DNA of 64,000 bases, from positions 89,416 to 153,415 of the forward strand of contig JBMORX010000010.1 of assembly GCA_049322615.1 (NCBI GenBank), read 5' to 3'. Below are positions 1 through 16,291 of the stretch, piece by piece (the stretch's first letter is position 1; every line of letters starts with the position of its first letter). Both the position numbers and the translations under genes were made by a program. A model generated the notes under the pieces. The model saw nothing but the letters and a program-made list of their open reading frames with translations, was not told the origin of the DNA and made no database searches. The DNA comes from Patescibacteria group bacterium. GTDB lineage: Bacteria > Patescibacteriota > Microgenomatia > CAYGWK01.

Positions 1-3000
1 AGTACCTCCTGTACCAAAGGCTAAACTTCCAGAAGATAGGATTTCGTGCCTGCCAACAGCGACAGTCTCAATTTCGAAGTCCAAGGTTTCAGCACCCAGA
101 CTATTCTGTAGCCGCAAGGGATATTTGGAAGGACTTCCAGCCCCAGGGTCATCAACATTCAGCTTAAAACTTCCCGGCCCCGTCGTCCCGATGCCGACGT
201 TGCCTACCGTATTTACCGTCAAGGCCGGTGTCCAGGCATTAACTCCTGATTTGTAGTCTAGAGTTAAAAGTCCAGCATTTCTTGGTCTGACTGCTCCTCC
301 CGAAGCAAGATATAAATTCCCAGAAACCGAGGCATCTCCGGAGACATCAAGTTTAGCTAAAGGAGAAGTTGTCCCAATTCCAATCTGACTGCCGGTTTCG
401 TAGATTATCGAGTCGGTGAGGGTCGTTGAACCTGACCATTTCGGAATGTAATTTTGCGTTCCGGTTCCCGAAAGAGAGGAGGAAGTGCCCATGACAATCC
501 AGGAAGTTCCATTACAGTAGTACATCTTATCATCTGTGCCGTCATAGTATTGTTTGCCTTTATTTGAGGCGTTACAGGTCCCGGCATAGGCGGGAGCATT
601 GGGTCCAAAACCTAAAGTCCCTGAAATGGTGGCGTTACCGGCAATATCTAGTTTTTGGCTTGGAGAGGTCGTCCCGATGCCGACGTTGCCACTTTTGTCT
701 ACGACGCTTAACACGCCCCCATCGCTATTCTGCCATTGGGTAAGGTCTCCTGTCTGACCTGAAGTTCCTTTAATAATTAATGGTATAGATGCGGCACCAA
801 CTGCACTATCGGCGGTAATTATTGCTGCGTTAGGAAGAAAAGCCTTTCTGCTGCTGTAGGTTAAAACAGGATTTCCATCACTCACTGAGAGAAATCCACT
901 AGATGCATAAATTCCACCACCATTAAAGTAGCCAGTGCCCGCAACTTCCAATTTGTAGGTAGGCCCCGTCGTCCCGATGCCGATATTACCCGCCGAAGTG
1001 ACCACGAAGGCGGGCGTTGCCGTGCCTCCGCCAACGGAATTGCCAATCTGGAGAGAACCATTGTCATACAAATTAATCAAATGAGCCGTGCCACTGCCTC
1101 TGAATGTTAGATTTCCCGAGGCGGAGGCACTCCCGGCAATATCCAAGGTGGCCAATGGTGAAGTTGTTCCAATCCCAATCTGGGAACCGGTTTCGTAAAG
1201 AATCGAATCGGTTAAAGTGCTAGAGGTTGACCATTTGGGAATGTAGTTTTGTGTTCCCGAACCCGAGACCCCACTTGCTCCTGAAGCGACTGCCTTCCAA
1301 GAAGAACCATTACAATAGTAGTATTCGTCGGCAGCATTATCATAGTACATCTTTCCTTCAGCCGCAGCATTACAGGTGCCGGCATAAGCCTGAACTTGGG
1401 GACCTAAAGATAAAGTTCCGGAAATAGTGGCGTCTTCTGCCAAAGTCAGGTCATTGAGAATATAGGTATTATGAGCGACAATCCCATTAGCAACAAAATT
1501 ATGGGTTCCCTCAACCTCAATATCATAGACCTGCTCCTCGCCAACATACTCAATCGAGGCAATTTTCGCCCATTTGACTCGGCTGCCAATTCCTCCACCT
1601 CGGAGGAGCCCCTTCGGGTCACCATCCGAGGTGTCTGCTGTGGCAATTTCCATTCCCGGACGAAGATAGATGACCTTTGTCCACTCGGCGTTGACAAAAG
1701 AATTTTCTTCTGATAGATTATTCTTAATGAGAGGGGTTGATCCAATTTGGCTGTCAATAGTATCAGACCTATTTGTTAACTTGTCTGCCGGTTGGTTTGG
1801 AGTGGTACTTATCGTTCCTAATTTTGCTAAAGAGAAGGGAAGAAGAAAATTGTTGGTCTTGACAACCGATGTATTACTTGGTATATTTTCCTTAGGTGTG
1901 GCATTTGTTTTAAGAAAATTATTATGAGCTCCAAAGACAAAATTGATATTCTCGATGTTAACGCCAGAGCCGCTATTGCTTTTGGTTTGGCCGTAATCGC
2001 TTTGCTCTTGCTTTATATTGCTTTCCTTAAGTAAATCTTGCCAATTTCTCACTAAATATGGGTGATTTCCGGTTGTCCTTATTTGTCTTCCGTCTTCAGT
2101 CGTCAGTCTATAGACTGGTTTGACCCCCATATCCAACAATCCCTTGATTTTGGCCGGCTCAATTTTGCCAGTTTTTTCGTTTAAAGAAAGAACAAGTTCT
2201 CCACCTTTAATATCCTTGATCTGGACGAAGGAGATATTAGGTGATTTTTCTTTTTTGTTTTCGCTCTTAGTATCATAGTCTCTTAGTATCTTAGTATCTT
2301 CTGTTGCCACGATTGGTAAAAGACTGTCGCCAGTAACACACTGTCCCTCAACATGGAGTTTTTGGGCAGGACTCGTCGTCCCGATGCCGACGTTGCCGGT
2401 ATTGATCCAGGAATTGTTACCAGATGTACCAGTGAGTTTTACTAAAGCCGAGGAGGTAGCCGTTGCTCCAAGCAAAACATCATCAGTGATATTGGTGGGG
2501 GAGAGTGCTTGGGCATTTCTTTGCCAATAGCCCGAGGTTCCGGAAGAAGGAGAGTAGATGTTATTGGCATACAAAGCATTCCAATACAAAGATGAAGAAC
2601 CAAGGTTTCTTGTTCCTGTTGCTTCGGGAGTAATATCTCCAGCTACCTGGAGAGCTGATCCTGGATTAGTTAAGCCTATTCCCACATTACCAGAGCTGTT
2701 AACAAACAATCCTGTCGTCCCTGTGGCACCCCGTAGCCAGGCAGTTCCAGCAATCTCTAACTTAGCGCCTGGCGAAGTGGTGCCGATGCCGACGTTGCCG
2801 CTGCTTAATACTAAACTGTCAGACGTGGCGCTGGAATTGATTCTGAATGGATAAGCTCCAGACTGTTGGTTTTTGAAAGCCAGTCCATAGACAGGATTAT
2901 CTGTAGAAATAATCCTGAAATCTACATTAGGGTCTCTCATCAATTCTAAATAGTTATCAGTGCCGTTGCCATTGACTCTTAGGTTGCCTGTTATATCTAG

Positions 3001-6000
3001 TTTTTCACTTGGTGCCGTCGTCCCAATTCCCACATTCCCTAAATTATTAACCGTCAGAGCCGGTGTCCAGGCATTGACTCCGGATTTGTAGTCAAGAGTT
3101 AAAAGTCCAGCATTTCTTGGTCTGACTGCTCCTCCCGAAGCAAGATACAGATTTCCAGAAACTGAAGCATCTCCAGAAACATCAAGTTTAGCTAAAGGCG
3201 AGGTGGTCCCAATTCCAATCTGTCCGCCTGTTTCATAAATTATGGAATCGGTTAAAGATGAAGAAGTACTCCATTTGGGAAGGTAGTTTTGTGTTCCCGA
3301 ACCAGAAACCCCACTTGCTCCTGAAGCCACTGCCTTCCAAGAAGAACCATCACAATAGTAGTATTCATCTTGGGCATTGTCATAGTACATTTTCCCTTCA
3401 GAGGAAGCATCACAGGTTCCCGCATAGGCCTGAACTTGGGGTCCTAGAGCTAAAGTCCCAGAAATAGTGGCGTCTTCTGCCAAAGTCAGGTCATTGGCAA
3501 TATAGGTATTGTGAGCCACAATCCCGTTGGCAACAAAGTTGGCGGTATTGGCAATCTGAAGATCATAGACATGTTTTTTACCAGCAGGCTTGATAGAGAC
3601 AATTTTCTCCCACTTGACCCCGCTATATTCCTTAGCATTCGCCTTTTTAATACTATTCGTATACGGCTCATGCTGCGGATTTACGGGGTCTGCGCCCTGT
3701 ACCGAGAAGGGAACTTGGTGGTGGGGCTTGACATCACCTAATTTACTTGTGGTAGAATGATTATCGATGGGAGAGTTAAAAGGAGAACCCAAAGTATATT
3801 CGGAATTTTTCACTAACGGAGCAGTCGCTTGGCTTTCAGCTGGGGTAATTGCGCCCTTATTTGCCAGAACATTAGGAATGAAGGAGGTAATTGCTTCTTT
3901 GATTTCTATTTCTTCTTGTATATTGTTTTTAAAATTAGCCTCTGATTTTAGCAAGGAGGGTCGATGATTGCTGATAATATTTTGATTGCCTACAGTATTG
4001 GAGTGATTATGAGTAGTATTATAATTATTTATGCCTACTTTCGCTTGAAAAAGTGAGGAATTATGAGTATTGAGACTATTGTTTATATCTTGGCGATTAT
4101 TTTCGGGGTGATTGCTTTCTATATTGCCTTCTTCAAGGTGCGTTAAGTTGGCAACCGCTATTTCTTCCCTTTCTTTTAAGAAAATAACTTTCTTCCACCC
4201 ATCAGGCGTTAGGTACGGGTGATTTCCGGTGGTTTCGATCCTTTTGCCTGATTCGGTTTTTAACTCATAAACTTCCTGAATGCCTTTGTCCAGAGTTTTT
4301 TCCACTTTCTGCCAGGCAAATTCTCCAGTATTTTCGTTTAAGGACAAAACTCTGTCTCCAGGTTTAACATCCTTTATTTGTTTATTTGACATTTGACATT
4401 TGACATTTGACATTTGACATTGTGCTACAGGCACTAAGCTATCCTCGGCCACACATTCTCCTGCTACATGGAGTTTTTTGGAAGGCCCCGTCGTCCCGAT
4501 GCCGACGTTGCCGGTATTGATCCAGGAATTGTTACCAGATGTACCAGTGAGTTTTACTAAAGCCGAGGAGGTAGCCGTTGCTCCAAGCAAAACATCATCA
4601 GTGATATTGGTGGGGGAGAGTGCTTGGGCATTTCTTTGCCAATAGCCCGAGGTTCCGGAAGAAGGAGAGTAGATGTTATTGGCATACAAAGCATTCCAAT
4701 ACAAAGATGAAGAACCCAGGTTTCTTGTCCCCGTTGCCTCGGGAGTAATATCTCCAGCTACCTGTAATTTTGAACCAGGACTTGTCGTCCCGATGCCGAC
4801 GTTGCCGCTAATATACGTGTCCCCGTTACCTAAGATTGAAAGTCCTTTCCCAGTTGTATAATCTGAAAGTGTTACTGCATTATGAGTTGCATCACCTTCA
4901 CCCTTAATAATCCATTCTCCATAAGCAGCAGGCCCGATGAAATAATTATCCGAATCAGAGTGGCGAAAATAATCTACATATAGACTGCTCCAGTGACTTG
5001 TAGACAGACCCAAATGTCGGTTGGCGCCAGAAGGAAGGATATGACCTGCTGCTTGGATACTACCCAAAACATCCAGCTTTTGACCCGGATTCGTCGTCCC
5101 GATGCCGACATAACCTTGTTCGGTCATTACCATTCCCGTTGTCCAGGCATCGGCTCCAGATTTATAGGCAAGTTGGAGTGGTCCGTAGGCAGGTCTAATG
5201 GTTTGTCCTTGACCAATGGTTAGGGTTCCAGACATTGAAGCATTGCCGGTAGTTCCTTCAAAATAGAGTTTGGCAGAAGAAGTGGCGGTTCCCCCAATGG
5301 CGACTGATTCGTAAGTGTTGTTGGGATAAATAACTCCACTGGTCTTTGTCCAATATCCTGAAGTTCCACTCGAGCCGCCATAGATATTATTGACATAAAG
5401 ATTATTCCAGTAAAGTGAAGTAGAACCTAAATCGTAAGTGTTTCCAGAGGAGGGAATGAGATTTGAGGCGACGTTGGCGTTTAAAGTTAAGTTTCCGGCT
5501 AAGGTTAAGGCGTTAAGGTTACCAGTGCCAGAGGAATTGATATAATAGGTGGTTCCGCCGCCAACGCTGATTCCCGCTGATGAGACAATATAAGACGCTG
5601 ATTGTTCGCCGATATCCAAAGAAACACCGCCAGCGCCGGTAATATCGCCGCCGGAAACGGTAATATCACCAGTAAAATAAGAACCAGTGGTATTGGCCCG
5701 AAGAATACCGGCGGCTGAGGCATTGCCGCTATAGTCAACTGTAAACTTAGGAGAAGGCGTCGAGCCGGATTCAAGTTTTAAAAGATTTAAATTGGTATTA
5801 TTGTTGGCTACCGAGCCATATAAAAGAGTATTTGCTTCTCGACCGCCTGATGAGCCGAGATTAGCATCGGTGGCGCTTATCACATTTCCCGTCCCGCCTG
5901 ACAAAGTTAGGTTTAGCACTCCGGAGCCATCGGGTGCTATGGCAATATTGCCGTTGGTGCCGGTATCGGTCACAATCGAGAGCGCCTGACCTCTAATTTG

Positions 6001-6843
6001 AAAAGTGCCTGAAGTTGACCAAATCTTGGGCGAGGCAGAAGCGATAATTAAATTACCTGCCGGATTAATGGCCGGGACAGTTCGGACCGTCGCCCCCATG
6101 GTCGCCGTCGGCTCGGCATTGGTAGCTGAAGCCAGAGGAAATCCTTGCAACGTTTCCGCGTTTAAGGCATAACCGACAGTGGCGATTTGAATTCTTGGAG
6201 TGGCTTCGGAGTCTGAACCAACGGTTATCCCAAGCCAGACCGAGGCGTTTTCCGAAAAAACCGAAGAGGCAATCGCCCCTCCGCAATCAGAGCCCAAAAT
6301 GGTGTTAAAAATTCCATCCTCATCGGGGTCAATTGAGCAGGTGCCCGAATCCCAAAGAGTATTCCCGCCAGAGGAGGCATCATAAAGTCTAAATCTCATG
6401 TTGGTGGCGGTCGTAATCGGAGTATTTGCCGAGTCAGTCAGCCTGCCCTGAAAAGAAAGATAGCGGTTGGGGACAACCGGGGCGGCCGGATAGGCAAGTT
6501 TTTCCGGAGCCTTTTGGATAAACTGCTGGTAAATGCCAAAGCCTAAAGCCGCCAGAAAGATGATTAAGATTAGAAAGTTTAAATAAGTGAAGTAGGGAAG
6601 AGCACGGTAGGCGCGAAGCGGAAGCTTCGCTTTAGAAATTAGTAATTTGTAATTAGTAATTAGAGAAGCCTTTTGGATAAAAGGATTCTCTTTAAGGTAT
6701 CCTTCTCTCACTGCCCAGGAAAAGAACTTTCGCAGCGAGGATTCTTTTCTTTTAAGGCTTTTGGCAGAGGCCCCCCGCATTGCCAGGTATTGGCGGAAAG
6801 TTTTTAGGGTATTTTTATCTATTTTTTGCCAAAAATTAGTCAT
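1..6843 (-). CDS. Giant surface protein (>2,280 aa), partial: the C-terminus lies beyond the window start. Reading from its N-terminus, the domains are a phage-integrase N-terminal SAM-like (core-binding) domain, a transmembrane helix, and a long extracellular region of tail-fibre-like GNVGIGTTSP repeats. It carries two Hint/intein insertions.
   Basis: Start ATG at 6843..6841 overlaps the TGA of the upstream gene (ATGA). I translated the minus strand from 6843 to about 6430 (MTNFWQKIDKNTLKTFRQYLAMRGASAKSLKRKESSLRKFFSWAVREGYLKENPF..., then the TM helix YFTYLNFLILIIFLAALGFGIY), and 4500..660 and 420..1 continuously without stops. The recurring GGCAACGTCGGCATCGGGACGAC (GNVGIGTT) codons at 204, 690, 2397, 4512 and 5115 are all in the same frame relative to 6843. 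The ORF track misses it, probably because no stop lies inside the window. Confidence 0.78.
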   Translation of the reverse strand, partial: MTNFWQKIDKNTLKTFRQYLAMRGASAKSLKRKESSLRKFFSWAVREGYLKENPFIQKASLITNYKLLISKAKLPLRAYRALPYFTYLNFLILIIFLAALGFGIYQQFIQKAPEKLAYPAAPVVPNRYLSFQGRLTDSANTPITTATNMRFRLYDASSGGNTLWDSGTCSIDPDEDGIFNTILGSDCGGAIASSVFSENASVWLGITVGSDSEATPRIQIATVGYALNAETLQGFPLASATNAEPTATMGATVRTVPAINPAGNLIIASASPKIWSTSGTFQIRGQALSIVTDTGTNGNIAIAPDGSGVLNLTLSGGTGNVISATDANLGSSGGREANTLLYGSVANNNTNLNLLKLESGSTPSPKFTVDYSGNASAAGILRANTTGSYFTGDITVSGGDITGAGGVSLDIGEQSASYIVSSAGISVGGGTTYYINSSGTGNLNALTLAGNLTLNANVASNLIPSSGNTYDLGSTSLYWNNLYVNNIYGGSSGTSGYWTKTSGVIYPNNTYESVAIGGTATSSAKLYFEGTTGNASMSGTLTIGQGQTIRPAYGPLQLAYKSGADAWTTGMVMTEQGYVGIGTTNPGQKLDVLGSIQAAGHILPSGANRHLGLSTSHWSSLYVDYFRHSDSDNYFIGPAAYGEWIIKGEGDATHNAVTLSDYTTGKGLSILGNGDTYISGNVGIGTTSPGSKLQVAGDITPEATGTRNLGSSSLYWNALYANNIYSPSSGTSGYWQRNAQALSPTNITDDVLLGATATSSALVKLTGTSGNNSWINTGNVGIGTTGPSKKLHVAGECVAEDSLVPVAQCQMSNVKCQMSNKQIKDVKPGDRVLSLNENTGEFAWQKVEKTLDKGIQEVYELKTESGKRIETTGNHPYLTPDGWKKVIFLKEREEIAVANLTHLEEGNIESNHPENNRQDINNSLNTHNSSLFQAKVGINNYNTTHNHSNTVGNQNIISNHRPSLLKSEANFKNNIQEEIEIKEAITSFIPNVLANKGAITPAESQATAPLVKNSEYTLGSPFNSPIDNHSTTSKLGDVKPHHQVPFSVQGADPVNPQHEPYTNSIKKANAKEYSGVKWEKIVSIKPAGKKHVYDLQIANTANFVANGIVAHNTYIANDLTLAEDATISGTLALGPQVQAYAGTCDASSEGKMYYDNAQDEYYYCDGSSWKAVASGASGVSGSGTQNYLPKWSTSSSLTDSIIYETGGQIGIGTTSPLAKLDVSGDASVSGNLYLASGGAVRPRNAGLLTLDYKSGVNAWTPALTVNNLGNVGIGTTAPSEKLDITGNLRVNGNGTDNYLELMRDPNVDFRIISTDNPVYGLAFKNQQSGAYPFRINSSATSDSLVLSSGNVGIGTTSPGAKLEIAGTAWLRGATGTTGLFVNSSGNVGIGLTNPGSALQVAGDITPEATGTRNLGSSSLYWNALYANNIYSPSSGTSGYWQRNAQALSPTNITDDVLLGATATSSALVKLTGTSGNNSWINTGNVGIGTTSPAQKLHVEGQCVTGDSLLPIVATEDTKILRDYDTKSENKKEKSPNISFVQIKDIKGGELVLSLNEKTGKIEPAKIKGLLDMGVKPVYRLTTEDGRQIRTTGNHPYLVRNWQDLLKESNIKQEQSDYGQTKSNSGSGVNIENINFVFGAHNNFLKTNATPKENIPSNTSVVKTNNFLLPFSLAKLGTISTTPNQPADKLTNRSDTIDSQIGSTPLIKNNLSEENSFVNAEWTKVIYLRPGMEIATADTSDGDPKGLLRGGGIGSRVKWAKIASIEYVGEEQVYDIEVEGTHNFVANGIVAHNTYILNDLTLAEDATISGTLSLGPQVQAYAGTCNAAAEGKMYYDNAADEYYYCNGSSWKAVASGASGVSGSGTQNYIPKWSTSSTLTDSILYETGSQIGIGTTSPLATLDIAGSASASGNLTFRGSGTAHLINLYDNGSLQIGNSVGGGTATPAFVVTSAGNIGIGTTGPTYKLEVAGTGYFNGGGIYASSGFLSVSDGNPVLTYSSRKAFLPNAAIITADSAVGAASIPLIIKGTSGQTGDLTQWQNSDGGVLSVVDKSGNVGIGTTSPSQKLDIAGNATISGTLGFGPNAPAYAGTCNASNKGKQYYDGTDDKMYYCNGTSWIVMGTSSSLSGTGTQNYIPKWSGSTTLTDSIIYETGSQIGIGTTSPLAKLDVSGDASVSGNLYLASGGAVRPRNAGLLTLDYKSGVNAWTPALTVNTVGNVGIGTTGPGSFKLNVDDPGAGSPSKYPLRLQNSLGAETLDFEIETVAVGRHEILSSGSLAFGTGGT
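1468..2340 (-). other. Intein / Hint-domain insertion 1 (291 aa) within the giant protein. It runs from Cys1 (codon 2340..2338) to the terminal Asn of VAHN (codon 1470..1468), with Thr at +1.
   Basis: Translation reads ...NTGNVGIGTTSPAQKLHVEGQ|CVTGDSLLPIVATEDTKILRD...TTGNHPYLV...VYDIEVEGTHNFVANGIVAHN|TYILNDLTLAEDATISGTL. Textbook intein blocks are present: A (C-x-x-x-D-S-L), B (TTGNHPY) and F/G (NFVANGIVAHN), followed by T. The central linker has no LAGLIDADG or HNH motif. Confidence 0.75.
3508..4455 (-). other. Intein / Hint-domain insertion 2 (316 aa), at the homologous site of the duplicated module. It runs from Cys1 (codon 4455..4453) to Asn (codon 3510..3508), with Thr at +1.
   Basis: Translation reads ...GIGTTGPSKKLHVAGE|CVAEDSLVPVAQCQMSNVKCQMSNVKCQMSNKQ...TTGNHPYLT...HVYDLQIANTANFVANGIVAHN|TYIANDLTLAEDATISGTL. 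The central region is N/S/H-rich and low-complexity, with no endonuclease motifs. Confidence 0.75.
4387..4421. repeat. Perfect 5x TGACATT heptanucleotide tandem repeat inside intein 2 of the giant gene. It encodes the QMSNVKC repeats.
   Basis: Sequence at 4387-4421 is tgacatt x5. Seven is not a multiple of three, so a +/-1 unit change shifts the reading frame. Confidence 0.9.
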
Positions 6844-7490
6844 TTCTTCCTTTCTCGAAATTCGAGCCTTTTTTTAAAAAGATTTTCCGAATAGCCGCCT
6901 TCTTCGATAAATTTTCGTTCAAGAGAGCGGATCATTTGGTCTAAAAGATAATTTTCTTTAGAAATAAGAGTAATCATAAGGTTGGCGAAACTCTCGGGAG
7001 AGCCAGTCCAATAAGACCAATTAGTCAAATTAGACTCATTGGCAGAGACGCGGAGAGAGCGGATCTTTAAAACCCGGGGGTCGTTTTTCTCCCAAAGCGT
7101 AAGCCTCCTAAATCTTAAGAAATCCCGATAGTCTTCTAAAAGTTCTCCATAACTTGCCCGAGCCACCCCAGTAAGTTTTATGTTCATCTTTAGGCTTTTT
7201 TCTAGCGAGGCTTCGACGATATTTTGTTTTCCCGAGCGGTCGGCTTGGGCCATTTGCTCAACCGTCCGGCGGTATTTTGGTTCTGAAAGATATTTTTGGC
7301 AGAACTGGTGGTTAAGACTGGAGATAACCACTGCCTGTTGATAAACAATCAGGCTTTCATAACCCCCAGGCTTTGAGTTAGACTTATTTGACTTATTGGT
7401 CCAATTGGTCATATAATTAAAGTGCGGGCCACCAAAAAGCGGCAAATTTTTGGTCCCCCCAAATTTTTGTGCAGCCCTTGGGGCCCGCAC
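6840..7490 (-). CDS. Four-helix-bundle family protein with a C-terminal suffix (216 aa). It is one of three paralogs of this type.
   Basis: The ORF contains TVEQMAQADRSGKQNIVEA...YGELLEDYRDFLRFRRLTLWEKNDPRV... and ends EGGYSENLFKKRLEFRERKK. This matches the ORFs at 23619..24104 and 30651..31241 (both ending ENLFKKRL). Recognition as the CPR-expanded four-helix-bundle (S23 IVS-like) family is from memory. Confidence 0.55.
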   Translation of the reverse strand: MRAPRAAQKFGGTKNLPLFGGPHFNYMTNWTNKSNKSNSKPGGYESLIVYQQAVVISSLNHQFCQKYLSEPKYRRTVEQMAQADRSGKQNIVEASLEKSLKMNIKLTGVARASYGELLEDYRDFLRFRRLTLWEKNDPRVLKIRSLRVSANESNLTNWSYWTGSPESFANLMITLISKENYLLDQMIRSLERKFIEEGGYSENLFKKRLEFRERKK

Positions 7491-7494
7491 CCTT

Positions 7495-7986
7495 TTAAGT
7501 TGCTATCTCGGCCCAAGTTAAGAACGCTCTTATATCAGAAAGATAGTTTTTGATAGTGTTAGAACTAGTCTTTTCAGCCTCCAGATGCTTTCTAAACTCT
7601 TCAAGAATTTTTTCTTCTCCCGTTATTTTATTGCTAGATTGCTTAATTGCTACATTGCTTAATTGCTTGGTGGGATTTTCCGAGATCCATGCTTGGGAAA
7701 GACAAAATTTGCCAAAGGTTCGCAGAGTCGAAAGCCGACGATTGACGGTTGAGAGGGGAAGGGAATTGGCTAAAAGAAAACTTTTGTAACCCAAGATGAA
7801 TTCCTCCTTAAGGTAAAGCCTCATCAACTGGGGTTCATCGTCGTTGACCGGAAGATTCCGACTTCTCAAAGTTAATTCTAACCAGCCAAGAAAGTGGTTT
7901 AAATCAGAAAGATAATTTCTGACGGTTATCGAAGAGAAACCTTGAAGTTTAAGATAAGTTTTAAAAGAATTGGGCAGGCTCGACAT
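7495..7986 (-). CDS. Protein made of two tandem phage-integrase N-terminal SAM-like (core-binding) domains with no catalytic domain (163 aa).
   Basis: Two repeats of the XerC/D N-terminal pattern: NSFKTYLKLQGFSSITVRNYLSDLNHFLGWLEL and EEFRKHLEAEKTSSNTIKNYLSDIRAFLTWAEIAT. No R..HxxR..Y catalytic region follows. Confidence 0.5.
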   Translation of the reverse strand: MSSLPNSFKTYLKLQGFSSITVRNYLSDLNHFLGWLELTLRSRNLPVNDDEPQLMRLYLKEEFILGYKSFLLANSLPLSTVNRRLSTLRTFGKFCLSQAWISENPTKQLSNVAIKQSSNKITGEEKILEEFRKHLEAEKTSSNTIKNYLSDIRAFLTWAEIAT

Positions 7987-8689
7987 AAATTTAAAATTTA
8001 AAATGTAAAAAGTAAAATTGCACTTAAGGCAAAAATCAAAATAGCAGTTAACATTTCGGCAATTTGATAGCCAATTCCATTCGTGTCAATTCGTGTTGGC
8101 GACGCAACATTGTACGCCATCCAAGGTCTTAGGCGGTCTGCGCGTCGCTCATTCGTGTTAATTCGTGTTAATTTCCGCAAAAACCTCCAAAGACCCTTAC
8201 TAGGCTTAAGATTATACAGATTATACATACATTTACTACTATAAAAGAATTCTTGACTGGTTGTCAAGAGGCATTTTGATGTATTTAGAATAGGTCAATT
8301 TTTGCCCAAAATTAACATTTTCATAAAGTTTTCACTGGATAAAAATGGTACATCTGTCCCTAACTTAATATATCATAATATAACTTTGGGGAGGGAGAAG
8401 TTGATGATATTATTTGATTGATTTAATCTAAAATTCTAAATTCGAAATCCTAAATTCTAAACCCTCCTTCGCTTACGCTTCGGAAGGGCAAGCAAATTAT
8501 TTCCTTAAAAAAAATTGCCGTGCCACTCCGAAGCCCAAAGGGCGTAGGGTGGTTTAGAATTTAGATATTAGTGCTTAAAATTTTTCTACTATTTTTATCA
8601 CTTCGCTGCGCTCAGTGCTAGAGAAAAAACAGTAAAGATTTGCTCGGATTTATAGGCTCATTTAGCAAATCCGAATGCATCCCGCCTTC

Positions 8690-8787: not shown

Positions 8788-9207
8788 ATGATCAAGAGGA
8801 TTTTAACCATTATTATTTTAGTTCTTCTAATCTTTGGGCTGATAATTGTCGTTTATCTGGTCCGTCAGCAAACAAAACTGCCTGGTCGAGCGACTACCCC
8901 CGGAGTTTTATCTTTAGAAAACTCTTATCTTTTTGCCTCGCCTCTGGTTGCTCGGGTTGGGGGTGGGGAAAAAATAACCATTTCCGCTTTTGTTTTGTCC
9001 GATCAGGGTTTGGGAATTCCTGGCGAGAAAGTGGTTTTATATTCTGCTCCCGCCCTTCAGGCTCTGACGATTCGGGATGAGACCGACTCTCGTGGTTTGG
9101 CGGTTTTTGAAATCACCTCGCAAACTTCCGGCTCATTTACTCTTTGGGCTACTGTGGCTGGAAAGGGGCAGATAAAACAACAAGTGACGGTTACATTTAC
9201 ACCGTAA
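8788..9207 (+). CDS. Small membrane-anchored protein with a beta-rich (Ig-like?) ectodomain, hypothetical.
   Basis: 139-aa ORF with an N-terminal TM helix (ILTIIILVLLIFGLIIVVYLV) and a GAGGA RBS. The overlapping ORF at 8745..9080 is in another frame and lacks an RBS. Confidence 0.45.
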   Translation: MIKRILTIIILVLLIFGLIIVVYLVRQQTKLPGRATTPGVLSLENSYLFASPLVARVGGGEKITISAFVLSDQGLGIPGEKVVLYSAPALQALTIRDETDSRGLAVFEITSQTSGSFTLWATVAGKGQIKQQVTVTFTP

Positions 9208-9218
9208 ACTAATCTTAA

Positions 9219-9611
9219 ATGTCAAATCTCAAAACTCAAAACCAAAACTTAAATCTTAAATCTAATTTAAAATATAGAGCATACAAATTTTCTTTAATGG
9301 TCATAAAATTTGTTAGTGGTTTTCCCGAAAAGAAGATTTACTGGATAATAGGTGATCAGCTTCTAAGAGCAGCCACTAGCATCGGAGCGAACATAATTGA
9401 GGCTCAAGCCTCGAGCTCAAAAAGAGAATTTATAAAGTATTACGAAATTGCTCTTAAGTCTGCCAATGAAACAAAATACTGGCTTTGCCTGTTAAGAGAT
9501 GGCAATTTAGTTAACAAAGAGGAGGTAGGCAGGATTTTAAAGGAGGCAGAAGAGATAAGTAATATGCTCGGCTCTAGCCTTTTAACCCTTAAGGGAAAGA
9601 AAAAGTTTTGA
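9219..9611 (+). CDS. Four-helix-bundle protein (classic short form, 130 aa).
   Basis: Contains QLLRAATSIGANIIEAQASSSKREFIKYYEIALKSANETKYWLCLLRD, which matches the S23 IVS / four-helix-bundle family pattern from memory. Confidence 0.65.
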   Translation: MSNLKTQNQNLNLKSNLKYRAYKFSLMVIKFVSGFPEKKIYWIIGDQLLRAATSIGANIIEAQASSSKREFIKYYEIALKSANETKYWLCLLRDGNLVNKEEVGRILKEAEEISNMLGSSLLTLKGKKKF

Positions 9612-9621
9612 CATTTTACAT

Positions 9622-10569
9622 TTAGTTTTGCCATTTGCGATTTGCCTTTTGAGTTTCTCTTCTAAGCATCACATAAGCAATAATGGCGATTATCAAAATC
9701 TCGGTTATTATAATTCCCTCGGGCGTAGTTAAAAACCTGACAAGCCACCAAAACAAGTTTGTCAGAAAAGCGATTATTTTCTCAATGAGCATTCTCCACC
9801 AAGACAAAACATCAAAAACCAAAGTCGTGCTTTTGGGAGAAGGATTGTTTAAGAAAATTGAGCCGACAAAAACCCGATTTTTGCCTAATTCTTCTGTTGG
9901 GAGATTAAATTGATAAAAACCATTTTGGTCGCTTAAAACCTTTGGTTTGGGAACTTCGGCGGCCAGGGCAGGAGTAATTAGTAATTGGTAATTAGTAATT
10001 AGGGGAAGACGGAAGCGGGCTTGCCCGCCCAAAGTCGCTCCGTGAGTCGTGTTCGAATAGAACCCAAAGACGAACGGTAAGACTGGGCGGGGTTTTTCTT
10101 CGAAAAGATAGGGGACAACCTCGGAATTTGGGGTGGTGTAGCCTTGGGCGGGAACTGTTTCTCCTTTGGCGATTTTTCCCTTCGACAAGCTCAGGGTCGG
10201 CGGCATGACGACCTCTTTGATTAAGATATCAAATTCCGGCGGTGGAGGAGCAAGACAAAGAGGGTGGGAGGAAATGTTTGAGACATCGGTGGCGATTAGA
10301 CAAAACGGTGTCAGGGTTCGGGGGAGGGCGATTCTGAAGGTAAACTTGCCTTGGTCATCGGCAGTGGTAATTCTTTTTATTACTTGTTCCATCGTCAATT
10401 CAACTTGGGCAAAGGGAGAAGTCCAGCCAGTCAGCTCAAGCCACCACCAGTAAGGAACAGTGGCCGTCACCTGGACGGATTCAGTCGCCAACGCCGGTCT
10501 ATTAAAGAAAGAAGAAAGGAGAAAGAAGAGAAAAGAAAGAAGTAATAAACAAAGTTTGTTGCTTCGCAC
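9622..10569 (-). CDS. Hypothetical surface or membrane protein with an N-terminal signal/TM segment and a C-terminal TM anchor (315 aa).
   Basis: N-terminus is MRSNKLCLLLLSFLFFLLSSFF (the same MRSNKLCL start as the rplA ORF extension). C-terminus is ...IITEILIIAIIAYVMLRRETQKANRK. Confidence 0.5.
   Translation of the reverse strand: MRSNKLCLLLLSFLFFLLSSFFNRPALATESVQVTATVPYWWWLELTGWTSPFAQVELTMEQVIKRITTADDQGKFTFRIALPRTLTPFCLIATDVSNISSHPLCLAPPPPEFDILIKEVVMPPTLSLSKGKIAKGETVPAQGYTTPNSEVVPYLFEEKPRPVLPFVFGFYSNTTHGATLGGQARFRLPLITNYQLLITPALAAEVPKPKVLSDQNGFYQFNLPTEELGKNRVFVGSIFLNNPSPKSTTLVFDVLSWWRMLIEKIIAFLTNLFWWLVRFLTTPEGIIITEILIIAIIAYVMLRRETQKANRKWQN
10023..10097 (+). ncRNA. Conserved structured RNA motif, copy A. 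A GC clamp stem (GCCCGCCC/GGGCGGGG plus a U-tract) encloses the core CGCTCCGTGAGTCGTGTTCGAATAGAACCCAAAGACGAACGGTAAGAC. It lies antisense inside ORF 9622..10569.
   Basis: The core shares a 15-nt identical block (GTGTTCGAATAGAAC) and flanking similarity with the 5' leader motif at 57128-57199. The inner helix co-varies (CCGT/ACGG here versus CCTT/AAGG there). Confidence 0.4.
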
Positions 10570-10577
10570 TTTCTTTT

Positions 10578-10596
10578 GACAGGGTCCGTCCCTGTC
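10578..10596. repeat. REP-like palindromic hairpin GACAGGGTCCGTCCCTGTC, copy 1, flanking the IS200-like tnpA.
   Basis: Perfect 7-bp stem with a TCCG loop. Identical copies lie at 10790-10808 and 11301-11319. Confidence 0.8.
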
Positions 10597-11281
10597 ACCC
10601 TTCGATTATAAGATTTCCCAGCATCTCTCTGGGATCTTCTTGATAATCTTCAATAAAACTTTGATAGGAGAGAATGTCTTTTAGCGAGGTGCGGCGAGCA
10701 GTCTTAAAGAAAGAGAGAATTGGTTCTGGATTAATCCAGATGGCTTTTTTCTTTCCTAAATAGTAGGGGTAACTTGAGTATGGCCAATTGACAGGGTCCG
10801 TCCCTGTCAACTCGGCGGGGTTAAGGTGAAGATAGCGAGAAAGATGAAGAAGATACGGTTCTTCAAGGACGAGTACCGCTTTGTAATTTCCCTGAAAAAG
10901 ATAACCATTTCGTTTGTATTTGCGGTTAAAATACATAGCATAATTTGTTAGGAGTCGCCTTAAAAGTTTAGTCATGCCGTTGGAGGTCTTTTGCGTCAGA
11001 AGAAGATGGAAATGGTTTGGCATAAGACAATAGGCGAGAAGTTGTAACTCTTGGCTTAAAGAGGAGGAGAAATCCCTTATTCTTGTTGGTTTAAAACCAG
11101 TAATTTCTCCAAGGGGATGGGTAAAGTTTGTTTTTGGGGGCGAAAGATAGAATTTTAAGAAATGGAGGAAAACTCGGTAGTCTTGGTCGTCAAGAAAAAT
11201 ATCTCGTTTTTCAATTCCGCGATTATAAACATGATAGTGGCCGTTTTCAATGTAGACCTTAATGCGGTTTTTGGCAGGCAT
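10595..11281 (-). mobile_element. tnpA: IS200/IS605-family (Y1 HUH, RAYT-like) transposase gene bracketed by cognate hairpins.
   Basis: 228-aa ORF with HYHVYNRG, the HUH motif MPNHFHLL, and GYLFQGNYKAV (catalytic Tyr). GACAGGGTCCGTCCCTGTC hairpins lie just outside both ends (10578-10596, 11301-11319), and a third lies in frame inside the ORF (10790-10808, encoding TGTDPV). Confidence 0.8.
10790..10808. repeat. REP-like hairpin copy 2 (inside the tnpA coding sequence).
   Basis: GACAGGGTCCGTCCCTGTC. Confidence 0.8.
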
Positions 11282-11300
11282 TCTTTTCTTAAGAATATCT

Positions 11301-11319
11301 GACAGGGTCCGTCCCTGTC
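11301..11319. repeat. REP-like hairpin copy 3.
   Basis: GACAGGGTCCGTCCCTGTC. Confidence 0.8.
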
Positions 11320-11328
11320 AAGGGGGAT

Positions 11329-12321
11329 TTAGGTGGTTTTCTCTTTGGGGGTCTCTTCTTCAAGTTCTTCTTTTTCTTTTTGGCGCCGGCGGAGAAAAAG
11401 GACAATAAGAATAGCGATGACAATCGCCAAGACTATCGCCAGGGCGATCCTGACTGGAAAAACAACAAAGTAGAGGGTGGCAAGCAAAACCTGACCGGTC
11501 GTTCCATAAGAAGCCGATAAATCTGCCCGATAGCGACCCAAAAGATATTTAGCGTTCCAGGTATTTTGATAGATAAAAGAGGCACTGGGAAAAATATTTC
11601 TTTCCTCAAGGGGCATAACCGTGGTTACTTTACCCAACATATTTCTGACCGTAATCGTCCCCTTTGGGGCAAGATGCAAATCAGAGAGATTTAAAATCTC
11701 CGTGGTGAACTTAACCGGTCCAAATTCTAAAAACTTTGGGGCGTCGAATAATTTGACTAAAGCCCGTTCTGTTACCGGTCCTTCAACCGTAAAATAAACC
11801 AAAGTTCCAACCACTTGCTGAATAGCGGTACCGGCCCCCGTACCCGCCCCAATTCGGGGGGGAGTCCCTTTTGACTGATATAAAACTCCGGCATAATGTC
11901 CTCCAGGTAGGGCATCCAAAGGAACGTTAGCGGAGACAACGATATTAACTGTTTGTTTTGGAGCAACTGCCACTGAAGTTGGGGAAAGTCTAATCCAGGA
12001 AGAAGCCGCCCAGCGACCAGAAACTTGGGCGCCGACAAACTCCGGAGTTCCGGCGGTATCCTTGACAATAAAATCCTTGGCAACGACGGCTAGGTAGGCA
12101 GTCTCGTCTCCTTCATTTCGAAATTGAATAGTTTTTTGAACAAACTCTCCGGGCTTGACTTTGACTTCTAAACGAGGAGGAATGGCGGTAAAAATCTGGG
12201 TCTGCGCCCGCGCGAAGCGCGGAATAAGCAAATAAGCAAATAAGCAAATGACAAATAAGCCAATAATAAGAAATTTGAAATTTGAAATTTGAAATTTGAA
12301 ATTGATTTGTTTATTTGACAT
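11329..12321 (-). CDS. C-terminally membrane-anchored surface protein B1 (330 aa). It has a signal peptide, a beta-rich ectodomain, a C-terminal TM helix and a charged tail.
   Basis: MSNKQINFKFQISNFKFLIIGLFVICLFAYLLIPRFARAQ... then IPPRLEVKVKPGEFVQKTIQFRNEGDETAYL... and a C-terminal ALAIVLAIVIAILIVLFLRRRQKEKEE. It is a paralog of 14433..15452. The architecture is reminiscent of DUF916-type anchor proteins of WxL loci (from memory, unverified). Confidence 0.6.
   Translation of the reverse strand: MSNKQINFKFQISNFKFLIIGLFVICLFAYLLIPRFARAQTQIFTAIPPRLEVKVKPGEFVQKTIQFRNEGDETAYLAVVAKDFIVKDTAGTPEFVGAQVSGRWAASSWIRLSPTSVAVAPKQTVNIVVSANVPLDALPGGHYAGVLYQSKGTPPRIGAGTGAGTAIQQVVGTLVYFTVEGPVTERALVKLFDAPKFLEFGPVKFTTEILNLSDLHLAPKGTITVRNMLGKVTTVMPLEERNIFPSASFIYQNTWNAKYLLGRYRADLSASYGTTGQVLLATLYFVVFPVRIALAIVLAIVIAILIVLFLRRRQKEKEELEEETPKEKTT
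12271..12298. repeat. 4x AAATTTG heptanucleotide tandem repeat within codons 6-16 of B1, followed by three 8-nt TTGCTTAT units that form the signal-peptide core.
   Basis: aaatttg x4 at 12271-12298 encodes the NFKFQISNFKF segment on the minus strand. Confidence 0.85.
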
Positions 12322-12339
12322 TTGTATTATTTGTTTATT

Positions 12340-13785
12340 CTAAAAGGTGGCTGTGGCAATATAAATTACATAATTCTCATAATCTCCCGCCGCCTGGGTT
12401 CCCGAGACAATAGCGCGGTAACAAACATAAGCCTGATCTAAATCAACTGGGGCACTCGCCGTCATGATTTGTTGAGCCGTTACTCCAAAAGGTCGGGCCA
12501 TAAAAGTGCCGCCGGTGTTATACCTTATGGCGCTTGGCACTGGTGTTCCGGTTTTATTCGCCAGGGCATAGCCAAAACCTTTATTGGTGGTAGAGGTCCA
12601 GTCGCCGGTCGTCGTTACCGTGCAGGTTCCACCGCAGGTGGTGTCGGCAATTGTCGGTGAACCTGACAAGCTCCAGGCAGTTAGGGCGGCACTTTCGGAA
12701 GCAGTCACCGAATAGCCTCCAACCGCATTAGTGGAAACCGACAAGACTTGGGCGGCATCGCTAAAGTCGGTGCTGAGAACGGTTCCTAGGGGAACAGTAT
12801 TAGGAGTGGTGGCAACGTCCGTGGTTTGACCGCAGACACTTTGACTGGCGGTTACCCCTGTCAGCATAAAAACCAAAGTGGGAGCAACGGTGGCGGTCAC
12901 CCGGACTGCCTCAATAACACTGACTTTTCCGAGAGTTTCGTCAACAGTAGCATATGATTGGTCAACTCCGTAGAGATGTCTAGTCCTGAAGGTATAGGTG
13001 TCGCCTGCGCCGGGACCATGTGAGGCTGAATAGCCAGAAGGGGAGGGATTGATAATTTTGTTACCTGCAGCCGTACCAATGATCATGGTCACCTGGGTCG
13101 CGCTCTGTCCGCTACCGGTATAGCGGCACTCAAAGGAGTGATAGTTAGTGCCGCCGACAGTGACGCCTGAACGAGTGGCGGTACCAGTACCGCTGTCGGC
13201 GAAAGTAATGTTTGATCCACCACCTGAGCAGGCAACGGTTGGGAGAGAGCCGGTGACAACATCAAAACCATTTTTATCAGGCAGACCATCTCCAGTTTCA
13301 GAGTCGGAAGCGGCGGGAATTAAGACCCTGAAGGCGCCATTAGCGATTTGTGAGTAAGGAGTAAATCTGAAGGTGTGAATCGCGGAAACGGTAGAAATCA
13401 CCGGATCGCCGTCTGAAGCGGCATTTGATAAACCAGCAGCCAAAACGACCCTGGTGTCGCTTTCAAGGGTTTTAACGGTCGTAATCGTGGCACCAGTACC
13501 TGAGCCGACCCTGATGCCATCATTAGTCATTAAAGTTCCCGAGCCAGTCGAGGTGTTATTAGTACCAAGACCAGAGGTTTTTAAAGTGATAACCGCCGAA
13601 CCAGCCGCTACCGCCCCACTAAGCTCGCCCCTAAAGGAAAGCCGACTATTAGAGATGGTGTCGGAAACTGAAGTTAATTGAGCGGAGTCAAGTTTCTTGG
13701 GAAACAAAAAAGCCAACCCGTAAAATTGGGCAGCCAGAAAAATCGCTAGACTAATTTTCGCGGCTAGTTTTGGTTTTTTAAACAT
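12340..13785 (-). CDS. Secreted Thr/Gly/Ser-rich surface protein A1 (481 aa) with a conserved C-terminal motif SGTQAAGDYENYVIYIATATF.
   Basis: Signal peptide MFKKPKLAAKISLAIFLAAQFYGLAFLFP and a long G/T/S-rich beta-type sequence. The C-terminal ~25 aa are nearly identical to the C-terminus of 15474..16268. Confidence 0.6.
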   Translation of the reverse strand: MFKKPKLAAKISLAIFLAAQFYGLAFLFPKKLDSAQLTSVSDTISNSRLSFRGELSGAVAAGSAVITLKTSGLGTNNTSTGSGTLMTNDGIRVGSGTGATITTVKTLESDTRVVLAAGLSNAASDGDPVISTVSAIHTFRFTPYSQIANGAFRVLIPAASDSETGDGLPDKNGFDVVTGSLPTVACSGGGSNITFADSGTGTATRSGVTVGGTNYHSFECRYTGSGQSATQVTMIIGTAAGNKIINPSPSGYSASHGPGAGDTYTFRTRHLYGVDQSYATVDETLGKVSVIEAVRVTATVAPTLVFMLTGVTASQSVCGQTTDVATTPNTVPLGTVLSTDFSDAAQVLSVSTNAVGGYSVTASESAALTAWSLSGSPTIADTTCGGTCTVTTTGDWTSTTNKGFGYALANKTGTPVPSAIRYNTGGTFMARPFGVTAQQIMTASAPVDLDQAYVCYRAIVSGTQAAGDYENYVIYIATATF

Positions 13786-13849
13786 TTTGCTGCTGTCAAT
13801 ATATACTTTATGTTAAGTATCACTCTATGTCAATATCTACTTTATGTCA

Positions 13850-13930
13850 AGACAAGATAGGTTATCAGGTAATCAGGGTATCAGAGATAGGATATCAGGG
13901 CATCTGGGTATCAGGAAATTTTTCTCCTAA
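13850..13930. repeat. Array of about six direct TATCAGG-type units with ~10-nt period (iteron-like).
   Basis: ggttatcaggtaatcagggtatcagagataggatatcagggcatctgggtatcagg. The inverse units (cctgat) are arrayed on the other side of the gene, at 14335-14425. Confidence 0.6.
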
Positions 13931-13945
13931 TCTCTGGATATCCTT

Positions 13946-14326
13946 TTATTGTTTTTCATTCTGTTGTTTCTCCCTGATATACCTGATATAAGCATTGATT
14001 CCTTTAATTAGTCCTTCATAGCGGTCAACTAATTCCTGACTTTTGGTGGTGGCAAGATATCTTTTGCCCTCCATTTTTCTTAAATGATTCTGGGTTTCTC
14101 CTGCTTCGCGTCTGGCTAAATAGAAAGATTTAATTTTATCGTTGTAGTAATAAGTGGAATACCCTTCAGCAATCGCATCGGGCACTGAGCCAGAAGAACG
14201 CTCTGCCTGGTCTGCTAATTTAAACTTTTCCTCTCTGGGCAGAGTTTTTGTAATGGTATGGACCTCCAACATCAGCTGATAAGCTTCCTGCCAAATTCTT
14301 AATTTTTCGAAAGTCGGCTTATTCAT
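13946..14326 (-). CDS. Four-helix-bundle protein (126 aa) flanked by the TATCAGG arrays.
   Basis: Contains ADQAERSSGSVPDAIAEGYS...FYLARREAGETQNHL, which matches the four-helix-bundle pattern. Confidence 0.6.
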   Translation of the reverse strand: MNKPTFEKLRIWQEAYQLMLEVHTITKTLPREEKFKLADQAERSSGSVPDAIAEGYSTYYYNDKIKSFYLARREAGETQNHLRKMEGKRYLATTKSQELVDRYEGLIKGINAYIRYIREKQQNEKQ

Positions 14327-14334
14327 GACTTAGA

Positions 14335-14425
14335 TTATTGGGTAATCAGGTTATCGGGGCATTAGGGCTTTCTCCTGATATCCCGCTATCCTGATTTTCT
14401 ATCCCTGATCTTCAGATTCCCTAAT
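14335..14425. repeat. Array of TAATCAGG/TTATCGGG units followed by inverted CCTGAT units.
   Basis: gggtaatcaggttatcggggcatt...cctgatatcccgctatcctgattttctatccctgatcttcagattccc. Confidence 0.55.
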
Positions 14426-14432
14426 ATCCTTC

Positions 14433-15452: not shown

Positions 15453-15473
15453 TTTTAACTTTTAACTTTTAAT

Positions 15474-16268: not shown

Positions 16269-16291
16269 TTGACATTTGTAATATTTGTATA

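Follow-up and report, generated by a model that had tools for sequence, protein, structure and literature searches.

The mosaic adhesive trimer (MAT) fibres of Bdellovibrio bacteriovorus are trimeric beta-helices with capping loops of the form V-G-G/N-pi-x-x-P-x-x-x-L, kin to the S74 fibres of phages, and they are exposed on the predator with swappable adhesive tips (PMC10769870). Open reading frames (ORFs) of the 23S_rRNA_IVP family, whose function is uncharacterized, occur inside the rRNA intervening sequences (IVS) of bacteria of the Candidate Phyla Radiation (CPR) (PMC11270868), and the kinship of their products with Avd has been noted (PMC10053308). Two further sets of described proteins resemble parts of the locus reported here: the related SAM-like core-binding domains of tyrosine recombinases (XerD, 1A0P; lambda Int, 2OXO/1Z1B; 3NRW), together with the catalytically inactive recombinase relatives MrpR (8A0A) and SroF (9RD5), which serve as DNA-binding regulators, and the class-1 mini-inteins Ssp DnaB (1MI8) and Spl DnaX (7CFV). 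CPR bacteria are thought to live attached to hosts, and the attachment structures of the Microgenomates are unknown. Here, we analyse a 64,000-nt stretch of DNA from a member of the Microgenomatia (contig JBMORX010000010.1; hereafter, the window), the left end of which encodes, on the minus strand, the N-terminal part of a giant fibre protein.

The best overall explanation of this locus, which we consider likely to be correct, is a giant membrane-anchored CPR fibre with a split, recombinase-derived anchor, a hairpin and an inserted gene at the split, and two inteins. The component kinds were already known; what is new is a tail-fibre/MAT-like fibre on a recombinase-derived membrane anchor divided between two genes. 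An initial annotation, made by reading the letters, had described the protein as an unusual fusion of a SAM-like domain, a transmembrane (TM) helix and tail-fibre-like repeats, and was in part right; it did not include the divided gene, the inserted gene, the hairpin or the inteins. The fusion is real but not unique: it defines a family widespread in Microgenomates, with 190 relatives in GTDB species representatives and at least 369 in JGI metagenomes, from each of which we examined 80 loci (denoted by L-numbers, as in L002, L005 or L014). The family appears to be undescribed in the searchable literature.

The giant gene and its divided anchor

The features of the fibre gene and of its upstream neighbour are as follows (AF2, AlphaFold2; HMM, hidden Markov model; aa, amino acids).

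1..6843, minus strand: giant fibre gene, 5' part; 2,281 codons, C-terminus beyond the window; open frame, 90 database homologues
6676..6843, minus strand: helices 3-4 of the second core-binding (SAM-like) domain, aa 1-56, with a very basic N-terminus (HMM and AF2)
6514..6618, minus strand: single TM helix, aa 76-110, most hydrophobic at aa 87-105 (residues 239-273 in the joined AF2 model)
6178..6465, minus strand: first ectodomain module, a family-defining beta-sandwich (LSFQGRLTD...TPRIQIATVGYALNAETLQG), pLDDT 95-97
7495..7986, minus strand: upstream ORF, 163 aa; core-binding domain 1 and helices 1-2 of domain 2

From the ATG at 6843 to the window edge, the minus strand reads 2,281 sense codons with zero stops, and the chance of such an open frame is ~5e-61 at the composition of the window (GC 0.42). 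The protein of more than 2,280 aa proposed earlier is borne out, and the region 4500-6430, where an in-frame stop or frameshift had been feared, contains neither. That the ORF track misses this gene, as had also been remarked, is true but trivial, as the list drops ORFs that run off an end. In the product, a single TM helix follows a basic N-terminus and leads into an ectodomain that resembles tail fibres. Residues 87-105 form the only N-terminal Kyte-Doolittle peak, a strongly hydrophobic segment modelled as part of a long helix, in agreement with the single TM helix of the initial annotation. The first 84 residues contain 19 K+R versus 4 D+E, and this excess, by the positive-inside rule, would place the N-terminus in the cytoplasm and the remainder outside. 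The beta-sandwich that opens the ectodomain matches only generic Ig-like and prealbumin-like folds and holds the most conserved columns of the family.

The N-terminus of the giant ORF matches Phage_int_SAM_5 at 27.1 bits and Phage_int_SAM_1 at 25.5 bits, above the Pfam cut-off of 22.3 bits, so that the similarity to the N-terminal core-binding four-helix domain of tyrosine recombinases withstands an HMM test. The match, however, spans only profile positions 40-83 of 83 (41-92 for XerC). Conversely, the upstream ORF carries one SAM-like domain in full (aa 7-97) and, at aa 126-160, another of which only the first ~35 profile positions are present. The upstream gene, read earlier as two stand-alone copies, has in fact one and a half domains, and the XerC/D-type domain ascribed to the giant protein is present there as a half, still devoid of catalysis as had been stated. 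The upstream ORF ends in ...ILEEFRKHLEAEKTSSNTIKNYLSDIRAFLTWAEIAT followed by its stop codon, and the giant ORF starts with MTNFWQKIDKNTLKTFRQYLAMRGASAKSLKRKESSLRKFFSWAVREGYLKENP in the identical reading frame.

We then joined the upstream ORF to the N-terminal part of the giant ORF and used this joined query for homologue search, alignment and AF2 modelling. It matched 90 proteins, nearly all from Microgenomates/Patescibacteria, many of which are single polypeptides covering 97-100% of it. The alignment runs through two contiguous core-binding domains, a linker, the TM helix and the conserved start of the ectodomain (LSFQGRLTD...TPRQQIATVGYALNSETLQG), and the giant gene itself passes from its core-binding portion via a linker into the TM helix. 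The joined ORFs show no gap problem against uninterrupted homologues, and the second domain folds as one (pLDDT >90). Many other homologues begin exactly at the start position of the giant ORF. No Phage_integrase catalytic domain (active site R-K-H-R-H/W-Y) was found in either ORF or in any homologue by HMM search and alignment; the family proteins are therefore not recombinases, and the label that homologues typically bear in databases, 'site-specific integrase, partial', is wrong for the family as regards 'site-specific integrase'.

The split is conserved in relatives, although gene arrangements vary among the GTDB loci. These include fused genes and two-gene splits with their own Shine-Dalgarno (SD) sequence and overlapping stop and start codons (L009, L011, L012); in others, the halves are separated by a short spacer (L014, L015, L029), by a longer one or by inserted genes. 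L002 was left out of the true splits, its apparent split being probably a 1-nt frameshift in a long-read assembly. Among the 80 JGI loci, 75 upstream ORFs stop 1-9 codons past helix 2, and 3 are fused. Overall, these comparisons indicate that the upstream and giant ORFs are, as judged from sequence, halves of one ancestral gene that persists uninterrupted in many relatives. That gene would have encoded, in order, two tandem cytoplasmic core-binding domains without catalysis, a linker, a TM helix (N-in), a beta-sandwich and a long shaft. The split would lie inside the second core-binding domain, helices 1-2 ending the 163-aa ORF and helices 3-4 opening the giant one, and this domain would need to be reassembled from two polypeptides. 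Tyrosine recombinases, MrpR and SroF differ in all these respects: here, the core-binding domain occurs in two tandem copies with zero catalytic domain, is joined to a TM helix and, beyond it, a giant ectodomain, and is split in its second copy. A role of the cytoplasmic module in binding nucleic acid or a partner at the fibre base is speculative.

The fibre shaft and its putative inteins

Downstream of the beta-sandwich, the ectodomain comprises the following (arrows mark intein junctions).

157..5115, minus strand: fibre shaft; 11 capping-loop motifs, 3 YYC(N/D)G modules with Cys, two inteins; repeat families D1-D4
3508..4455, minus strand: predicted intein 1, aa 797-1112, 316 aa (CVAEDS...TTGNHP...VAHN↓T)
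1468..2340, minus strand: predicted intein 2, aa 1502-1792, 291 aa (CVTGDS...TTGNHP...VAHN↓T), same insertion site, duplicated extein context

Pfam searches over the ectodomain gave no matches. With the inteins removed, the ectodomain matched PHROG tail-fibre families, namely phrog_9942 (3.8e-35, over six stretches), phrog_18345 (2e-23) and phrog_3269 (1e-17), and the only significant solved relatives were Bdellovibrio fibres (Bd2133/8OND, 1.9e-8; 8OL4; 8OJN). The HMMER alignments to these three pass through the GNVGIGTTxPxxKL capping-loop motif. This motif (G-N-V-G-I-G-T-T-x-P-x-x-K-L) occurs in 11 copies and the YYC(N/D)G(S/T)SW module in 3, and together with the PHROG and Bd2133/8OND matches they confirm the tail-fibre-like repeats seen at first reading. 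No Peptidase_S74 chaperone was matched within the available 2,281 aa, the C-terminus lying beyond the window.

The likeness to MAT fibres and phage S74-type fibres extends to a long beta-helical shaft, recurrent capping loops and direct sequence matches, as well as to tips that vary among family members and, for MAT fibres, to their occurrence on a bacterium that lives on other bacteria (PMC10769870). Complete family members measure 1,480-1,860 aa and differ in their C-terminal tips. L015 and L032 share a distinct tip (...LYVKSK..G.FT(V/I)GF...DTDV.FNWWI...) that is absent from the complete members L037 and L077, which fits swappable tips. Unlike MAT fibres, the giant fibre is at least twice as long, has inteins and belongs to a monoderm-like CPR envelope; judged by domain makeup rather than by sequence alignment, its TM anchor and cytoplasmic core-binding domains replace the MAT N-terminal domain. 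With its long shaft, capping loops and variable tips, the fibre would presumably be a trimeric beta-helix, as in MAT and S74-type fibres. Because the gene is syntenic with envelope genes and its family is essentially absent from 2.9 M viral contigs, we assign the predicted product to a cellular surface structure, a membrane-anchored tail-fibre-like fibre; by analogy with MAT fibres, it most likely mediates attachment to a host cell.

Two stretches of the giant ORF, 607 of its 2,281 residues, match Intein_splicing (PF14890, 141.4 bits for a cut-off of 35.8), TIGR01445 (49.4 for 24.5) and TIGR01443 (61.3 for 15.6). Both have Cys1, a block B TxxH (TTGNHP), a C-terminal His-Asn and a +1 Thr, and both carry a 170-190-aa N/S/T-rich linker in place of the endonuclease domain; among solved structures, the Ssp DnaB mini-intein 1MI8 comes nearest (1.3e-15). 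They are inserted directly past the capping loop, at …KLHVAGE↓C and …KLHVEGQ↓C. In homologues, inteins occupy this site as well as two others, and intein-free homologues are continuous across the present site (KLHVIG↓TAGFSNTVTL in L014; KLDVAG↓(N/D)A(S/T)IS in L080 and L023), as is the third module of the window's own fibre (KLDIAGN↓ATISG). On these features, the fibre is predicted to contain two canonical class-1 mini-inteins, which share Cys1, TxxH, HN, +1 Thr and the Hint-fold HMMs with those of DnaB and DnaX. They differ from the latter in their host, an extracellular structural fibre rather than a replication or repair enzyme, in their insertion at a repeated structural motif, with several sites per protein as a consequence, and in the low-complexity linkers that replace the endonuclease. 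Both would have to splice out for the shaft to be continuous.

The two inteins are only 28% identical, whereas their ~110-aa flanks are 93.6% and 88.2% identical in protein (93% and 83% in DNA, where they include a 228-nt exact repeat) and the more distal flanks are unrelated to each other. This mosaic suggests either that gene conversion between the exteins went no further than the intein borders or that inteins invaded a duplicated site independently. Note that residues 12-25 of intein 1 (4390-4430, minus strand) contain a tandem 6-7-aa duplication, CQMSNVK-CQMSNK, with two extra cysteines.

The junction hairpin and the inserted gene

Two elements lie between the halves of the ancestral gene.

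7407..7494, minus strand: conserved hairpin at the junction, immediately 3' of the upstream stop codon; its outer stem is GC-rich, its inner stem bears a G-rich loop, and a U-rich TTTAATTATA tail follows
6840..7412, minus strand: inserted four-helix-bundle gene, 190 aa from ATG 7412; Avd/23S_rRNA_IVP family plus TIGR04258 suffix domain

The window hairpin (nested fold over 7413-7493) has a minimum free energy of -39.6 kcal/mol (z = -3.6); L004 has a similar hairpin (z = -4.3) with a different stem sequence. We built a covariance model (R1) from 19 examples and searched ~970 kb on both strands with it. The window copy, single in the 64 kb, scored 76.6 bits (E = 4e-14), and the hairpin was found in 57 loci, exactly once in each, on the coding strand and just past the stop codon, with no other match. 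In the 8-bp outer stem, 86.8% of cells are paired, compared to 73.7% in shuffled controls (0 of 500 attain the observed value) and 34-48% when the stem is slid. Compensatory double changes occur at six of the eight pairs, with a covariation score of 0.388 versus 0.04-0.10. This covariation, from a MAFFT/RNAalifold alignment, concerns the outer stem only, the inner stems being seen in single-sequence folds. All 47 distinct hairpins carry a G-rich run (GGGGGGAG, GGAGGGGA or GGGGAGGAG), looped in most single-sequence folds, and a conserved U-rich tail (TTTAATTATAcAAC) follows the stem, with at least 5 T in 8 nt in 36 of 45.

Rfam searches over the window returned only tRNAs at gathering score, and nothing credible at E up to 10 in 6700-8300. 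Several other identities were considered and rejected. Readthrough or recoding of the stop codon over the hairpin is contradicted by gap lengths that are evenly spread modulo 3 (~14, 19 and 15 loci) and by stops in most in-frame gaps; a group I/II intron or known ribozyme, by the lack of an Rfam match and a non-coding stretch of only ~85 nt; and a dispersed repetitive extragenic palindrome, miniature inverted-repeat transposable element or Y1-transposase substrate, by the single copy in the window and in each related locus. The G-run is SD-like in 47/47 hairpins, versus an SD at 4/42 downstream starts, a contrast that says nothing for or against the G-rich loop as a ribosome-binding site, given the lack of SD enrichment in the genes of the window. 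With SD-like tetramers scored 4-18 nt upstream of the start, 10 of 52 window ORFs have one, the same as random 15-mers (0.19), the start-codon calls being mechanical; the organism appears to make little use of SD sequences.

We infer that the hairpin acts between the two cistrons, most likely as an attenuator or a processing element, and thereby allows the small and the giant product to be expressed independently of each other. Like intercistronic intrinsic terminators and attenuators, it consists of a GC-rich stem directly past a stop codon, then a U-rich tract; unlike intrinsic terminators, it is ~60-110 nt long and branched, has a conserved G-rich loop and tail sequence, and was not called by a standard terminator scan.

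The gene inserted behind the hairpin scores 54.6 bits with TIGR04258 (cut-off 40) and falls just below the cut-offs of TIGR02436 (23.4 for 24) and PF05635 (23.6 for 33.8, 6e-5); four-helix-bundle homologues in the same slot elsewhere match PF05635 at 1e-37. Its real start is most likely the ATG at 7412 and not the mechanical ORF start at 7490, because the preceding 78 nt are hairpin and non-coding in relatives. Its TGA overlaps the giant ATG (ATGA). The closest relative, L005, has the hairpin and lacks the insert, at 69% identity in the giant N-terminus and 59-83% in neighbours.

We surveyed insert genes in 161 loci (900 kb). The junction slot holds 12 of the 13 long four-helix-bundle genes, 4 of the 7 short ones, 5 of 6 NYN genes and both DUF3800 genes; by Pfam, its cargo comprises 23S_rRNA_IVP/bAvd, NYN, SNase and DUF3800, in every case co-oriented with the operon. 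A conserved leader (…ATTATAcAAC…AAAAGCAAGTCA-ATG) leads into whichever gene stands first, and inserts often open with an echo of the giant N-terminus (MTNW/MTNFW here, MSMKITKGK/MEITKGK in L006). The first ~15 codons of the fibre gene (MEITKTKIFAYQ...) recur as degenerate duplicates upstream of its real start at L125:2748-3191 and 3172-, and at L133:3350-3805, and these duplicates look like insertion or excision scars at the slot. Separately, tandem ~31-35-nt repeats occur in the leader between hairpin and fibre start (L121:3561-3654, L150/L153:3566-3649), in copy numbers that vary between near-identical loci (e.g. L150 versus L151).

Mobile-type genes recur elsewhere in the window.

6840-7490 (minus), 23619-24104 (minus), 30651-31241 (plus), 9219-9611 (plus), 13946-14326 (minus): 23S_rRNA_IVP/Avd family genes, five in 64 kb, three long 'suffix' and two short
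10595-11281 (minus), 42468-43175 (minus): two IS200-like Y1 transposases

One long four-helix-bundle copy stands between tRNA-Pro and tRNA-Arg, and the locus of the closest relative lacks the three copies nearest the fibre gene. A diversity-generating retroelement as the context of the Avd-like gene was rejected, as no reverse transcriptase-like ORF (YxDD motif) was present among window ORFs of at least 200 aa.

The leader between hairpin and giant start is a recurrent landing slot for small nucleic-acid-directed genes, in which an Avd/23S-IVS-type gene took over the leader and start position and became translationally coupled (ATGA) to the giant gene. The parallel with 23S/16S rRNA IVS is that the same protein family inserts in and fragments a host gene beside a stable stem, an insertion that would be tolerated because the fragments still assemble. 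In contrast to the IVS, the host here is protein-coding, the ORF lies downstream of the stem and not inside it, and the slot also takes NYN, SNase and DUF3800 genes. It is possible, and we advance it tentatively, that the hairpin-marked break is a dedicated, heritable 'cassette slot', a protein-gene counterpart of rRNA intervening sequences, behind which small genes insert to be co-expressed with the fibre.

Competing readings, genomic setting and meaning

Of the other readings, the one that survives best makes the four-helix-bundle, NYN, SNase and DUF3800 genes functional accessories of the fibre operon, perhaps RNA-binding or processing factors for the hairpin. Their common orientation, their position directly past the hairpin, their shared direction towards nucleic acids and the translational coupling of the present insert would all suit such a role. 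Yet most loci, the closest relative included, have no insert, the cargo is unrelated between lineages, the family is multicopy and dispersed (five copies in the window), and duplicated giant 5' ends flank inserts like insertion scars; we regard an accessory role as unlikely and favour insertion into the slot.

The Hint modules could also be bacterial intein-like (BIL) autoprocessing domains, cleaving the fibre or making variants of it after export. A secreted, variable and repetitive protein is, as Amitai et al. reportedly described in 2003, the classic BIL context, and splicing outside the cell would be unusual. The profile scores point the other way, since Intein_splicing reaches 141 bits while Hint (27.3 bits for 29.7) and PT-HINT (26.7 for 27.7), weakly matched, both fall short of their cut-offs. 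C1, TxxH and HN plus Thr are moreover all present, the junction HN↓T is canonical, the nearest solved relatives are the DnaB/DnaX mini-inteins and the exteins are continuous in intein-free homologues, which makes BIL domains distinctly unlikely compared with splicing inteins.

An imperfect palindrome beside a cassette hotspot, next to proteins derived from recombinase DNA-binding domains, brings to mind a site of recombination in the DNA itself, of the attC or Xer type, at which gene cassettes would be captured. Such a site is improbable here: there is one hairpin per locus and none 3' of an inserted gene, the cluster has no catalytic recombinase, and an integron attC/cassette array is not recognizable on these counts. 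The strand asymmetry of the model score (about 67 bits on the coding strand versus reverse-strand echoes of ~16 bits) fits an RNA element, as in the attenuator or processing function that we prefer.

It might further be argued that an integrase gene has decayed and left the upstream ORF and the half domain as remnants, the split being functionless and the N-terminal fragment a pseudogene, as the gene inserted between the halves and the coincidence of the split with a mobile-gene hotspot could imply. We find this highly doubtful: the catalytic domain is absent from every family member, split or unsplit, the upstream ORF is intact, conserved (41-67% identity, 42 invariant columns) and always adjoins the fibre gene, and coupled stop/start arrangements are retained in several lineages.

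A prophage or tailocin origin, with a viral rather than cellular tail-fibre gene, draws on the strong PHROG matches, on the frequency of inteins and selfish genes in phages and on the nearby Y1 transposase; against an N-terminal TM anchor with a cytoplasmic module, envelope-gene synteny conserved over many Microgenomates lineages (complete genomes included), a single marginal match in IMG/VR (2.9 M viral contigs) and no other phage structural gene in the adjacent 10 kb tested, it is very improbable. Finally, the earlier reading of one fusion protein with a complete SAM-like domain beside an unrelated upstream gene with two more, although right about SAM-like matches in both ORFs, the TM helix and the repeats, is scarcely credible in its details, already refuted by complementary partial matches (positions 40-83 in one ORF, the first ~35 in the other) and by joined ORFs that align to uninterrupted homologues and fold as one domain.

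Several points weigh against the explanation of the locus as a split-anchored fibre. The C-terminus and the tip domain lie beyond the window. That the fibre forms trimers, is exposed at the surface and binds a host, that the inteins splice and that the split domain reassembles are all predictions. The 228-nt exact repeat, its copies 2,115 nt apart, leaves room for a mis-assembled repeat order or copy number, and in exact-protein look-ups the 5' third of the gene is corroborated by just one 3.6-kb public contig, maybe from the same sample. Compared with classical intrinsic terminators, the hairpin has a greater length and more branches, and it escaped the terminator scan. We know of no function for stand-alone membrane-tethered core-binding domains.

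The surroundings of the operon include the following.

8238..8267, minus strand: promoter-like site TTGACA-18-TATAGT upstream of the operon, an 11/12 consensus match only
8788..13785: syntenic envelope block, with Big_1 protein 8788-9207 (plus), p315 9622-10569 (minus), p330 11329-12321 (minus) and p481 12340-13785 (minus)

The p481-p330-p315-Big_1 block lies upstream of the fibre gene in ~40 of 80 loci, and its members all have signal or TM segments; in the window, it is interrupted by a short four-helix-bundle gene (9219-9611) and a Y1 transposase (10595-11281). The interval 9622-17008 (minus strand) contains paralogous envelope genes without a Pfam family, for which relaxed Pfam searches gave faint Ig-like hints only. 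Among them, p330 and p339 combine a signal peptide with an Ig-like body and, at the C-terminus, a TM segment with a basic tail, and p481 and p264 have in common a C-terminal module that ends in ...AAGDYENY(V/I)I(Y/F)(I/V)AT(A/P)T(F/Y). These paralogues may form a surface-assembly system. The 5' leader of the operon (8079-8168, minus strand) contains four ACACGAAT copies as two tandem pairs flanking a GC-rich imperfect palindrome (~8097-8150). As a marker of four-helix-bundle genes, ACACGAAT was rejected, being found in the window solely in this leader, and the mechanical ORF 7998-8267 that overlaps it is probably not a gene. Elsewhere in the window, ARAGORN assigned the tRNA at 47912-47987 (minus strand) a four-base anticodon (ctta) and no amino acid, and its Rfam score (54.7 bits) is the lowest of seven. 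L005, L007, L009 and ~30 other loci come from contigs of metagenome-assembled genomes titled 'uncultured Gammaproteobacteria' or 'uncultured Pseudomonadales', and a few 'Bathyarchaeia', 'Spirochaetia' or 'Melioribacter'; titles outside Microgenomates are most likely taxonomic mislabels or bin contamination.

These data correct a systematic mis-annotation, hundreds of family genes having been labelled 'site-specific integrase, partial'. They place inteins, predicted to be canonical, at a recurring structural motif of an extracellular structural protein, and a structured RNA outside Rfam next to a hotspot where 23S-IVS-type genes enter a protein-coding operon, a hotspot that bears on the spread of the enigmatic four-helix-bundle genes. 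If the hairpin also determines how much of one anchor half is made relative to the other, it would represent a new class of cis-regulatory RNA specific to CPR surface-fibre operons. For the Microgenomates themselves, this widespread syntenic cluster with its tail-fibre-like giant product provides a concrete and testable candidate for host recognition.

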